From: an uncultured Parachlamydiaceae bacterium
GTDB taxonomy: Bacteria; Chlamydiota; Chlamydiia; Chlamydiales; Parachlamydiaceae
Assembly (NCBI GenBank): GCA_963752155.1
Contig: CAVVXH010000010.1
Location: 160,001 to 224,000 of the forward strand
DNA: 64,000 nt
Reading direction: 5' to 3'
Part shown: positions 6,686 to 59,199 of the stretch, piece after piece
Layout: each line of letters begins with the position of its first letter
Position numbering within the stretch: position 1 is the first letter of the stretch
Notes under the pieces: model-generated
What the model saw: the letters and a program-made list of their open reading frames with translations, nothing else
The model's database searches: none
What the model was told of the DNA's origin: nothing
Translations under genes and position numbers: made by a program

Positions 6686-7070
6686 AAAATCGACTGATGC
6701 GGAATACTAAGAAAAATTAAACGCAAAGCGAGACAGTTGCCTACGGCGCCCCTTATTGGGAAATAACAAATTTTTAAAGCGCCTTGCCATTGGTGCCTGA
6801 CCTGATATTCTGACATTTGCCCTTTAGGATGCAATGTCATCGCCTCGGCAAATGTCAGAATATCAGGTCAGGCACCAATGGCAAGGCGCAATTTGTTATT
6901 TAGGAGGCACGAAGGCACAAAGAGATCTTACGCGAAAAATTTTCATTTAAAAAAAAGAGGTGAATTTTATTTTACATGTAAGATCTCTTTGTGCTCTTTG
7001 CGCCTTCGTGTCTTTGCGTTTAATTTTTTCCTATACTTTATATCTTAATATCGCAGCATCTTTCTCACCT
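6686..7070. mobile_element. Composite palindromic element, copy A (MITE/REP-like)
   Basis: Outer ends cgactgatgcggaatactaag and cctatactttatatcttaatatcgcagcatc; inner IR aaaaattaaacgcaaag/ctttgcgtttaattttt; perfect 43-bp hairpin 6779-6821/6847-6889. Shared with copies at 13919, 46773, 56797 and 58978. Confidence 0.85.
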
Positions 7071-7118
7071 ACCAAACAACAACTGTCTTGCTTAGCGTTT
7101 TGTCTTTGCTGCTGTCCT

Positions 7119-7478
7119 TCAAGACCCAGTGAAAACGAAAGTGACCCCATTTGTCATCTTTTCCACAGGAGGATGCAGTTTGTGAACTTTCACTGTAATC
7201 TGAGCTCTGCCGGATACAATTTTTCCAAATTCTTTATGCAAAGTATAAGCAAGAAATTCAATTAGCTTGAATTCCATGCTTTTAGCTACTTGACAAGCAC
7301 TTGCAATAAATACAGAATAATCGATGGTGTGCGAGAGATCATCCGTTACGCAAGCTTGTGGCATTCCAGGAAAATTCAGATCTACTGAAATATCTAAAGG
7401 TTGAACAGCAATCCTTTCACCTTGCTCACAACCTAGATGGGCCCAAATGCGAAACGGATGTATATGTAACGTGTACAT
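7119..7478 (-). CDS. folB: Dihydroneopterin aldolase
   Basis: AHLGCEQGER, DDLSHTIDY and KLIEFLA motifs; likely ATG at 7478, immediately after the infB stop. Confidence 0.85.
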   Translation of the reverse strand: MYTLHIHPFRIWAHLGCEQGERIAVQPLDISVDLNFPGMPQACVTDDLSHTIDYSVFIASACQVAKSMEFKLIEFLAYTLHKEFGKIVSGRAQITVKVHKLHPPVEKMTNGVTFVFTGS

Positions 7479-7479
7479 T

Positions 7480-10400
7480 TTATAACTCTTGGATAATATA
7501 AGAGATCTCATAGCTTTCAAGAATATCCCCTTCTTGATAGATACTGCAGCCATTTAGAACGATTCCACATTCAAGACCTTTAGCCACCTCTCGTACATCT
7601 TCTTTGACCCGCTTAAGCGAAGTAATTGTTCCTTTCCAAAGCATGTCTTTACCACGGCGTAGACGCATATGATGGCTACGATGGATTGTCCCTTCGATGA
7701 CTTGGCAACCTGCGATAGTTCCATAGTGAGAAGATTTAAAGATGGCTTTGACTTCTGCCTTGCCTTTTTCCGTTTCTACGGCAATCTTATCAAGCAATCC
7801 AGCTAAAATAGACTTAACATCATCAATCGCATGGTAAATGATATCATGCAGACGGACTTGGATCCCTAGTTCTTTGACTAAACTATCTGCATGGCTTTCA
7901 ACTTGCGTGTGGAAGCCTACAATAATCGCTTTTGAAGCTGCAGCTAATTGTACATCTGATTCGGAAATTTCACCGACTCCCGTGAAAATAATATTCAGTT
8001 CGGCTTTTGTGGACGTGATCTTTAGTAAGGCAGCTTTTAAAGCTTCCAAGGAACCCTGCACATCAGCCCGTAAAACGATGTTAAGTACTTTCTTGGTCGT
8101 TCCATCAGAGGCTTGTTGGAAAAGATTTTCTAATGTGAGTTTTTTCTTTAATAAAAGACTTGTCTGACGTATGCCTTGTTTCCTTCCTTCGGCAATTTCG
8201 CGAGCTTCTTTCTCATTTTTAACAGCAATAAATTCTTCTCCAGCTGCTGGTAAGCCCGAAAGGCCAGTGATCTCTACAGGAGTGGATGGGCCAGCTTCTT
8301 TCAGATCTTGGCCAAATTCATTTTGCATTGTTTTAACGCGTCCAAATGTTTGACCAAAAACTAAGGCATCGCCTAAACGTAAGGTTCCATTTTGAACTAA
8401 AACTGTCGCTACAGATCCCATTCCTTTATGCATTTCTGACTCTAAAACTGTTCCACGAGCACGATTGAGGGGAGAAGCTTTGAGTTCAAGCACTTCTGTT
8501 TGCAGAGCTAACATCTCTAGTAGACTTTGAACACCTTCTCCAGTGGCTGCAGAACAGTTGATGGTGATTGTTTGGCCCCCCCATGATTCAGGTAAGAGGT
8601 CGTGTTCAGATAACTGACGATAAACATTTTCTGCATTAAAATTAGGCTTATCGCATTTATTAAGTGCTACGACGATAGTGACATTCGCTGCTTTAGCATG
8701 CTGAATAGCTTCAATCGTTTGTTGTTGGATCCCTTCATCACCAGCAACAACTAAGACGACGATGTCAGTGACATCGGCTCCACGTGCACGCATGGACGAG
8801 AATGCTTCGTGGCCAGGGGTGTCGAGTATCGCAATATCACCCACAGAAGTATGGCATTTGAATGCCCCAATATGCTGTGTGATGGCACCGGCTTCTCCGG
8901 AAGCACGGTTACTTTTGCGAATATAGTCGATCAGACTCGTTTTACCATGGTCAACGTGTCCCATAAATGCCACAATAGGGGGACGTGTGATTAATGTATC
9001 GGAAGCAGCTTCGCTAATTTCCTCTTTAATCGTTTTGTCAGTAACCCGTAGTCGTTCTTCTTCAGCTGTATCAATAGTAATTTCACAACCAAACTCTTGA
9101 CCAAGCAGACCGATAGTTGTCTCGTCATCTAGAAAATCATTAAGCGTAGCAACTACACCTTGCATAAATAATTTAGAAATCAATTGTGAAGCTTTAACCT
9201 TCATTTCAGAAGCTAAATCTTTGATGGCGATAGGTATGCGTACCTTTAACGATGTTGGTCTAACGGCTATATCTTCATGATGTTGATGTTGAGGCTTGAG
9301 CTTCTTTTTGCGCCATCCCTTGCGATCTTCCTCACCATAACGCAATCCTTGTCGATCACGAGCATCAAATGTTCGTTGTGGTTCAGCTTTGTTGCGGGAG
9401 GGGCGCACATCGCGAAATTCTTTAGTTTTGCTAAATTTTGAATCTTTTTTAGTTCCTTCTGCGGAAAGACTCTCAACTGATTTTGCCGGAGCTCTAGCTT
9501 TTTCTTCATCGCGAGCATTCGTCCTTTTCTCGATCTGCTTCTCAGAAGGTGCTTCTGTCAGGTGTTCTTCTGAGCGCGCTTTTACTTGATCGTCTCGATG
9601 GGGACGCTGCGGCGAACGTTGGGGTAGAAGGTCTTTAACATGTCGACCGGTAGGGCCCAGTTTTTCATAGGATTCTGGTGGTTTACGCCGAGTCTCTTCT
9701 AAAGCGGAGGTTTTACGATACCCCTCTTTTGGTTGCCTCCATAGAGTAGGCTCTGAGGCAGAATCTTCGGTTTTTGCCCGTGGTTTTTGGGATGTATGAG
9801 ATTCAGATGTTCGATGTTGTGTGGGTTTGTCAGAGGCACGATGTTCAGTTGTTTTGGATTCTGGCTTTTTAAATTCAGGTGTGGATTTTTGAGCAGCCTG
9901 CCTTGGAGAAGAGGTGTGAGGTTGCGCATGAGCTTTCGGGCGGGCTGTTTGATCCTCCTCAGCTTCACTTAATTTCGTTGGTTCGTCATCCTTTACAATT
10001 TTAGATGCGGCAGGCAATGGAGGCATCGTTGTTTCTGCCGGTTGGTGAGGCTTGAGTAAAGGTTCGACATGTCTCTTTGCATACTCGATCTCTTTGTGTT
10101 TTACCGCAGATTCTTCTTTATGCTTTTTCGGATGTTCCATATCTTTGTTGCCGGATCTTTCTAATTTTGCCTCTTCTTGTTTGAAAGGAGAAGTTGCAGA
10201 AGGAGATTCTTTAAGTTCATCACCAAAGATCTCCTTACGTAATTCTTCGCTTGTCTTTTGACGGACAAGTCCTTCATCTTTGAGATTTGCTTTAGTTAGA
10301 GATTCACGAGGCTGAACTTCGGCGTCTGGGATTTCTGGCAATGTAGGTTTACCACTGGATTCAGATGGCAGAGGTGCAATAAATGCCGATTTTGTTCTGG

Positions 10401-58790: not shown

Positions 58791-58839
58791 GGACCTAAAA
58801 GTACAAATTATTCTTGCACGGGTCCTAAGTGTTATTGGG

Positions 58840-58863
58840 CGGCATTCCTTTTTAGGAATGCCG
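58840..58863 (+). terminator. Probable terminator hairpin
   Basis: cggcattcct-tttt-aggaatgccg about 50 bp after the stop. Confidence 0.55.
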
Positions 58864-58977
58864 TAAGCAGGTTTCACTTAGCCGTGTTTTGATTGACTTT
58901 TTTGGGTAAAGTAATGTATAAAGTTGTCCATAATATCAAGAACAACGAAGTACTAAAACAGAAAAGTTTAATTTTTT

Positions 58978-59199
58978 TAACGCAAAGCGAGACAGTTGCC
59001 TGCGGCGCCCCCTATCGGGAAATAACAGATTTTTAAAGCGCCTTGCCATTGGTGCCTGACCTGATATTCTGACATTTGCTTACAATGATAACGTAACCTC
59101 CCAGGAGGGCAAATGTCAGAATATCAGGTCAGGCACCAATGGCAAGGCGCAAACTTGTTATTTAGGAGAAGCAAGCAAAGGCACAAAGGCGCAAAGATC
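58978..59199. mobile_element. Composite palindromic element, copy E (A-P-B, loop type 2)
   Basis: cgcaaagcgagacagttgcc, 43-bp hairpin and truncated B module. Confidence 0.88.

Follow-up and report, generated by a model that had tools for sequence, protein, structure and literature searches.

The window analysed in this study is a stretch of 64,000 nucleotides (G000:C10:160001-224000) from an uncultured Parachlamydiaceae bacterium (G000, the source genome; assembly of 3.13 Mb, 80% complete). It contains a nested palindromic repeat for which an earlier note on this DNA had listed five copies, A to E, and two fragments, and all of these were found at the positions given there. The copies are assembled from the following three parts: a core built of the stem arms P and Q; a gene-less shell made of the left end (module X, ~41 bp) and the right end (module Y, ~13 bp) of an IS110-family insertion sequence; and an outer hairpin of the type found around the genes of the small GxxExxY nuclease family. 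The nested palindromes are three layers of selfish DNA and not one element. In the reading that we consider probable, a gene-less IS110 shell around a tetramer of TIRYT repeats was moved within GxxExxY-type arms by an IS110 recombinase with a predicted bridge RNA acting in trans. Of the earlier description, the non-autonomous and modular character stood, whereas the single element with one deletion series gave way to three nested families.

The core repeat did not arise by chance, as 411 stem arms were found in the genome and none in the base-shuffled genome. These arms made up 196 hairpin units, which comprised 65 four-arm cores, one six-arm array located at a transposase gene, 23 units of the P-P type, 32 solitary P-Q units and eight unclassified units. 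The repeats were genome-wide, and confinement of the copies to the window, which the earlier note had named as the case that would speak against it, did not hold. The repeat family covered 211 loci longer than 60 bp, or ~86 kb (2.75% of the assembly), a figure that counts adjoining repeats too. The P and Q stems differ by one base, which splits their shared block into 7 and 15 nt, and the shared 23-nt stem links Q_L to P_R and Q_R to P_L, as originally described. The same sequence forms loop1 and, in reverse orientation, loop2 (copy D, 26 of 29 positions; copy C, 17 of 29); because of this, the core is a 110-bp unit followed by a spacer and by the reverse complement of the unit. The most frequent full form, Y-loop a-spacer-loop b-X, accounted for 21 of the 65 cores. 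Copy C folded at z = -24, and a search of the window against Rfam returned no matches.

Copies A and E had been interpreted as the products of deletion between internal direct repeats, and in silico deletion of copy C upheld this view. Deletion at 47010/47195 gave 178 nt that were identical to copy A at 171 of 178 positions, and deletion at 46970/47153 gave 180 nt that were identical to copy E at 174 of 181, whereas the swapped comparisons gave 161 matches. Moreover, all 15 short cores that were typed on both flanks fitted a deletion from a parent form existing in the genome; the other eight of the 23 were not typable on both flanks. A crossover within the 7-nt part should leave a hybrid P/Q arm on the junction side only. 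Such an arm was present on the junction side of 9/23 short cores compared with 8/165 ordinary units (p = 1.6e-5) and with 1/23 on the far side (p = 0.0098). In ~17 cores, the same site was occupied by a TTA-targeting miniature element, whose ends are GGGACTGTGCAA and which is accompanied by a duplication of TTA. The spacers of these cores measured 274, 190 and 169 nt against 112 nt in the empty form, and the shared site indicated that the core was copied after that insertion. This miniature element had 76 motif matches in the source genome (e.g. C1:107149 and C13:10222), of which 66 came after TTA or TAA, and it displayed its own nested palindrome and size series; a transposase for it was looked for in the source genome and not found.

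The earlier note had found no mobiliser in the window, and partners can now be named, as IS110 ends bracket the core and a Y1 transposase gene flanked on both sides by a four-arm core lies on the same contig. This gene (C10:596682-597704, locus L001) is intact and encodes a protein of 341 aa with a PF01797 (Y1_Tnp) match of 52 bits, HIH and YIHLNP motifs and a weak C-terminal DnaA-like match (residues 224-326, E 7.5e-4). A long Y1 protein with a C-terminal extension is the architecture reported for subclass 2.1.2, alias group 1 of the REP-associated tyrosine transposases (RAYT; REP, repetitive extragenic palindromic sequence) or TIRYT (PMC6006769, PMC5581495, PMC3733652), and by this architecture the protein was assigned as a putative TIRYT (RAYT group 1, TnpA-Y1 subclass 2.1.2). 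The proposal that the arm motif is related to RAYT repeats was likewise borne out, the P/Q core being a TIRYT terminal repeat. Furthermore, the two nearest TIRYT homologs (L018 and L019) bear a homologous stem as terminal repeats. Canonical REP features were absent: neither P nor Q arms carried a GTAG foot, and the protein scored below the NF047646 cut-off (71.7 vs 80). The core arms read GGTTCCAG/GGTGCCTG and lacked the GGGGWSAS motif, which is reported for some terminal inverted repeats only (PMC3733652), while the homologs L019 and L026 retain GGGGTCAG.

Protein searches of the genomes detected TIRYT homologs in 15 of 40 relatives; a contig scan with the TIRYT protein gave no match. Amplified stem arms were found in three of the 40 relatives, namely G001 (79), G002 (20) and G035 (50), compared with 400 in the source genome; G035 also carries a homologous TIRYT gene, and in G001 and G002 the stem was missing from all four Y1 loci. 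Two other candidates were rejected as mobilisers. The second RAYT gene (L002) scored above the NCBIfam cut-off for REP-associated transposases and was flanked by a different repeat (GGAGTGCG...GCCACCGC; L002:730-1291 and 1420-2025), which also forms a hairpin at 20293-20581 of the window. The search for DDE transposases returned three weak PF01609 matches and no PF13359 match; L086 and L087 lacked the modules, and L088 held only an adjoining repeat copy.

The IS110 shell was recognised in 41 clean units of left end, core and right end (166-527 bp), all of them gene-less, and copies A, C and E of the window are among the shells. In GxxExxY-type arms the shell lies after CGCAAAG, between two AG dinucleotides. 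The right flanks of the clean units fell into five arm classes and three unique flanks, which have only the 7-nt left target in common, with the shell at the same point. An AG preceded 105 of 108 left ends, and the 7-nt left target was CGCAAAG in 66 and CACAAAG in 13 of the 108. All 50 X-to-Y pairs in the source genome came after AG; in 16 of them the opposite hairpin arm keeps the empty site, with exactly one AG in 15 of the 16 (control 0/300). Moreover, 61 of the 65 full cores contact an IS110 end. Within arm context, 62 of 146 CGCAAAG sites were occupied compared with 8 of 501 other sites, although the duplication of entire composites may account for some of this excess.

The shell interrupts the left arm of the GxxExxY-type hairpin in copy A, and removal of the shell from copy C in silico, keeping one AG, yielded the junction of copy B. 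Copy B is therefore an unoccupied or precisely vacated target, namely a GxxExxY hairpin without shell, and not a member of the deletion series that had lost P, as was first supposed. An orthologous empty site was not obtained, since the folB neighbour of copy A was unmatched in G001 and G002, and flank joining gave no paralogous one; the outermost composite ends showed no excess of target duplications. A right end-left end junction at C1:74259 was degenerate and too weak for use. The right end had also been considered as a ribosome-binding leader of GxxExxY, which was rejected because complete IS110 copies show the end of the insertion sequence inserted ahead of the gene. Outside the source genome, X and Y enclose other cargo or merely 36-45 bp in relatives, and other genomes hold minimal shells of 88-96 bp that lack a core. 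The left-end motif was carried by 17 genome records, in which every named organism was a chlamydia.

Six complete elements of 1707-1818 bp carry the left and right ends of the shell (L159, L163, L167, L168, L200 and L201). A metagenome contig scan with the X motif returned 11 stretches, of which four were complete elements, and two further elements came from G119. All six have AG at both ends and are located within arms of the GxxExxY type; the right end of L163 is directly followed by a GxxExxY gene. Their layout is X, ~200 nt of non-coding sequence, an open reading frame (ORF) of 434-465 aa (ORFs of four elements) and Y. Both DEDD_Tnp_IS110 and Transposase_20 scored above cut-off in the three proteins scanned (L163, L159 and L154), IS621 was the sole solved-structure match of the L163 protein (E 2.4e-8), and the best 120 listed protein homologs were 78-100% identical. 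A cognate transposase with 79-84% identity was present in G411 and G409, which belong to the same family as the source genome. Among 22 IS110 loci tested for the ends, L154 alone had one of them exactly, and 11 of the 30 IS110 loci from the protein search had no end or RNA motif.

The non-coding region of the complete elements is conserved, and its predicted fold showed compensatory change in 8 of 34 pairs (five sequences, with the structure taken from the same alignment). After a conserved CCCGT or CCTGT in this region stands a 7-mer that repeats the left target, AG included. Six distinct pairs of guide and target were compared, with the guide 7-mers CGCAGAG, CGCGAAG, CGCGGAG, CTGGAAG, TTTGGAG and CACAAAG (target CACAGAG); they agreed at 41 of 42 positions, and 1 of 720 permutations was equally good; five further rows without a readable left flank were left out. 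Two elements reached via the protein search, L204 and L226, matched at 7/7. Behind a second CCCGT stands a copy of the last 7 nt of the element, and this donor-like segment changes together with the right end (TTAGGAG, TTAGAAG, TTAAAAG and TATAGAAG). A left target guide together with a left donor guide is the pattern described for bridge RNAs (PMC11208160), and the IS110 clade is accordingly predicted, from these alignments, to be guided by a bridge RNA. L193 and L179 are mini-elements (330-340 bp) that have IS110 ends and a predicted bridge RNA and lack a transposase. At L187, L176, L183 and L188, the RNA region seemingly lies downstream of a gene end.

The outermost layer was identified by its gene partner. 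At locus L005 of the source genome, the outer-hairpin modules containing AAACGCAAAG and GCACGAAGGCGCAAAG lie on both sides of a GxxExxY nuclease gene (TIGR04256), and inverted flanks were present at 19 of 30 GxxExxY loci of the source genome and relatives compared with 0 of 300 control pairs. Judged from these flanks, a pair of GxxExxY-type arms makes up the outer palindrome. Literature searches found no paper on GxxExxY hairpin cassettes. The genome G035 contained 71 GxxExxY protein matches, many with identical scores, which suggests a recent spread of the cassette there.

On these observations, the following course of events is proposed. An IS110 element of this clade with the guide CGCAAAG would have colonised GxxExxY-type arms, and a gene-less derivative would have taken in the TIRYT tetramer and then been mobilised in trans. 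The shell would circularise at AG, and a partner with the guide CGCAAAG would reinsert it at CGCAAAG, with a preference for hairpin arms; in the source genome this partner may have been lost or may be unassembled. One early core would have gained the TTA-targeting miniature element before its ~17-fold copying. Slippage between the 23-nt direct repeats would then shorten the core, while modules would be shuffled by recombination or template switching, both from copy to copy and between inverted arms. Movement in trans has been proposed for MITEPpu9 (PMC12288879), a transposable element of the miniature inverted-repeat type (MITE); engineered ISPpu10 donors of end, cargo and end were mobilised in trans (10.64898/2026.03.19.712850), and excision of IS621 by the recombinase-RNA complex is reported (PMC13626964).

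Several observations weigh against this scheme. The 80%-complete assembly yielded neither an IS110 gene nor a bridge-RNA region, so that movement in trans is a step that we infer, and no complete element with the guide CGCAAAG was found, the nearest being CACAAAG (L105 and L204). The guide test rests on related elements, and no covarying segment that could be a right target or right donor guide was seen by eye in alignment A1. For 34 of the 50 end pairs there was no opposite-arm reconstruction, and the bases after the core were variable. Left ends stand at both sides of 13 of the 65 full cores, which therefore cannot serve as IS110 donors. The few G001 and G002 loci inspected showed the core amplified without the shell, which means that IS110 is not required for the spread of the core. 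Furthermore, four-gamete conflicts climbed with distance (3/56, 25/108 and 76/112), indicating that the copies recombine and are not independent insertions. Two of the counted copies lie within one 4-kb duplication, and the short core at C10:266958, one of the eight untyped, fails the simple deletion scheme. The duplication (C7:1-4000 and ~23200-27200) is inverted with 99.25% identity, has one composite copy inside and may be real or an assembly artefact. Given that no IS110 gene was found in the assembly, and given the cores with two left ends, the shell-free cores and the dependent copies, IS110, TIRYT and conversion may each have had a share in the spread, and we rank IS110 first with reasonable confidence.

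The recombination among copies leads to the strongest alternative, in which few ancient shell entries occurred and the present copies arose mainly by homologous recombination or gene conversion between dispersed hairpins. The strong mosaicism of flanks, loops and single-nucleotide polymorphisms, the missing IS110 partner and the many copies with ragged or symmetrical ends are in its favour. However, conversion requires homology on both sides, which the three unique flanks do not offer; the shell sits at an identical point in these and in five arm classes that share the 7-nt left target, its junctions are precise, and the median identity of the cores is 95.6%. We regard this explanation as unlikely. 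A little less probable still is that the core is mobilised in single-stranded form by the resident TIRYT, which would carry old IS110 ends along and cut at CT, AG on the other strand. The TIRYT gene is intact, with both motifs, and core-flanked, RAYT groups 2 and 3 are reported to cut at CT (PMC8266576), G035 combines a homologous gene with 50 arms, and single units without shell are present in the source genome. Against it, the boundaries are those of complete IS110 elements, the same shell occurs elsewhere with other or no cargo, retention of the 7-nt left target is unpredicted for a CT cutter, and the parts of the literature consulted yielded no cleavage data for group 1 enzymes. Finally, it is very improbable that one non-autonomous element with an unnamed mobiliser accounts for all short forms, copy B included, either as derivatives produced by deletion or as collapses of the assembly. 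Deletion does yield copies A and E exactly, and the short copies are known from the assembly alone, but the modules separate in different relatives and each maps to a known gene family, copy B equals copy C without its shell, the short forms were seen at 23 loci whose flanks are distinct and whose hybrid junction is biased, and the complete IS110 elements carrying the shell ends largely refute it.

The trans-mobilised shell preferred here has close parallels. ISPpu9 and MITEPpu9 of Pseudomonas putida likewise belong to the IS110 family and use one position in a palindromic repeat with an AG direct repeat (PMC12288879, PMC8450116), and MITEPpu9 is a transposase-less module with the same ends for which movement in trans was proposed (PMC12288879). 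They differ in that the target of ISPpu9 is a REP and not a GxxExxY-type arm (PMC12288879, PMC8450116), the cargo of MITEPpu9 is a small RNA gene and not the repeat tetramer of another transposase, and there are eight MITEPpu9 copies (PMC12288879) compared with 41 clean units here, where the IS110 partner was not found in the assembly. IS621 and ISPpu10 share with the complete elements both IS110 domains, palindromic targets and a non-coding region ahead of the gene with segments matching the left target and the left donor including the core (PMC11208160, 10.64898/2026.03.19.712850); ISPpu10 also reads the target stem-loop and moves end-cargo-end donors in trans (10.64898/2026.03.19.712850). 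In contrast, the proteins here have ~465 aa compared with 326 there, the core is AG instead of CT, the left guide match is 7 nt instead of 9, the predicted fold is unlike the two-loop IS621 scheme (PMC11208160), and right guides were not identified in the complete elements.

For the core, TIRYT/TIRtron families provide the same long Y1 protein, weak DnaA-like C-terminal match and terminal repeats (PMC3733652, PMC6006769, PMC5581495), which also form dispersed dimers and clusters (PMC3733652). Those families have moderate numbers and GGGGWSAS repeats (PMC3733652), whereas the genome here holds ~400 arms of the GGTTCCAG/GGTGCCTG type with frequent IS110-end contact. Clusters of REPINs (REP doublets forming hairpins) and bacterial interspersed mosaic elements (BIMEs) also contain palindromic doublets, together with unrelated repeats that have inserted within or beside one another (PMC3116915), but they differ from the present repeats, which lack the GTAG foot and whose nesting is site-specific and tied to IS110 ends. 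GxxExxY (TIGR04256, PF13366) cassettes similarly have octamer/nonamer arms around the gene and dispersed gene-less doublets; here, the arms are the landing site of the IS110 clade.

Precedents exist for IS110 at palindromes, IS110 MITEs, TIRYT repeats and cargo-bearing IS110 (for the last, 10.64898/2026.08.14.744561); since every ingredient has a precedent, the novelty of the composite lies in the combination rather than in the kind. We found no paper on an IS110 clade aimed at GxxExxY arms, although supplements of IS110 surveys may list the clade, and none on a shell carrying TIRYT repeats. A puzzling mosaic repeat has become a testable case, and the unexplained GxxExxY arms are tied to an assayable system. 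If the proposed scheme is true, the genome would hold natural cargo on bare IS110 ends at high copy number, the shells of 88-96 bp would be natural minimal donors, ~100 left-end junctions would chart how much variation the targeting tolerates, and the known bridge recombinases would be joined by a clade whose core is AG and whose RNA is predicted to fold differently. Site-specific nesting followed by slippage would be one possible origin of BIME-like mosaics. As to the wider claim, the chances appear about even that a large IS110 clade has its RNA guide directed at the arms of the uncharacterised GxxExxY nuclease cassette, re-tunes this guide as the arms change, and provides minimal ends of ~90 bp that serve in nature as trans-mobilised vehicles, picking up and multiplying other selfish repeats; one selfish system would then be farmed by a second on landing pads built by a third.

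The features of the window are collected in Table 1. The P arm end fragment adjoins the hairpin of the second RAYT repeat family at 20293-20581, and the junction beyond the copy E shell recurs ahead of a GxxExxY ORF in locus L004.

Table 1. Layers of the nested repeat in the window (positions are those of the window; a dot marks features without strand).
Feature	Position	Strand	Description
Copy A composite	6673..7099	+	Outer IS110 right-end remnant, linker, GxxExxY-type hairpin, right linker
Copy A, outer IS110 right-end remnant	6673..6685	-	
Copy A, IS110 shell	6729..6906	+	178 bp; left end, short core, right end terminating in AG
Copy A, short core	6779..6889		P-loop1-P
Copy B	13920..14055	+	GxxExxY-type hairpin doublet and linkers without shell; empty target
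P arm end fragment	20589..20601	+	13 bp; too short for interpretation
Diverged GxxExxY-type hairpin doublet	31698..31954	.	Without shell; absent from the list of the earlier note
Decayed fragment	45855..45948	-	Stem, P arm, left end of IS110; overlap with the end of ORF 45165-45905
Copy C composite	46768..47347	+	Shell interrupts the right arm of the GxxExxY-type hairpin
Copy C, IS110 shell	46924..47286	-	363 bp; left and right ends both intact
Copy C, full TIRYT repeat tetramer	46942..47237	.	P-stem-loop-stem-Q, spacer, inverted copy
Copy D	56795..57187	-	Full core 56833-57130; IS110 left end up to 57180; right end damaged
Upstream of copy E	58900..58987	+	Outer linker and arm start of the second GxxExxY-type arm family
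Copy E, IS110 shell	58988..59168	+	181 bp
Copy E, short core	59038..59150		P-loop2-P
Downstream of copy E shell	59169..59220	+	Remaining target arm and first codons (ATG 59200) of a deleted GxxExxY gene

Other hairpin repeats with short units, of the CAAGGACAA and CACAGAG types, were observed at 27370-27455, 43843-43910, 61804-61871 and 36872-36973, and they are also present within some core spacers. Two of the copies adjoin toxin-antitoxin-like gene pairs, namely a MazE/AbrB-PIN pair (45963-46624) beside copy C and a nucleotidyltransferase/substrate-binding pair (59291-59994) beside copy E. The nusA, rpsA, isoamylase, peptidase M17 and P-type ATPase genes seem split or truncated (10606-13861, 28780-30218, 32221-33447 and 47348-49124), and such frames in essential genes suggest uncorrected assembly indels. 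At 41561-45003 stand three paralogous ORFs in tandem (353-376 aa), one of which matches ankyrin weakly. An ORF of 1610 aa (50325-55157) with a C-terminal ubiquitin hydrolase domain, possibly a host-directed deubiquitinase, has 104-bp direct repeats on either side, at 50209 and 55259.

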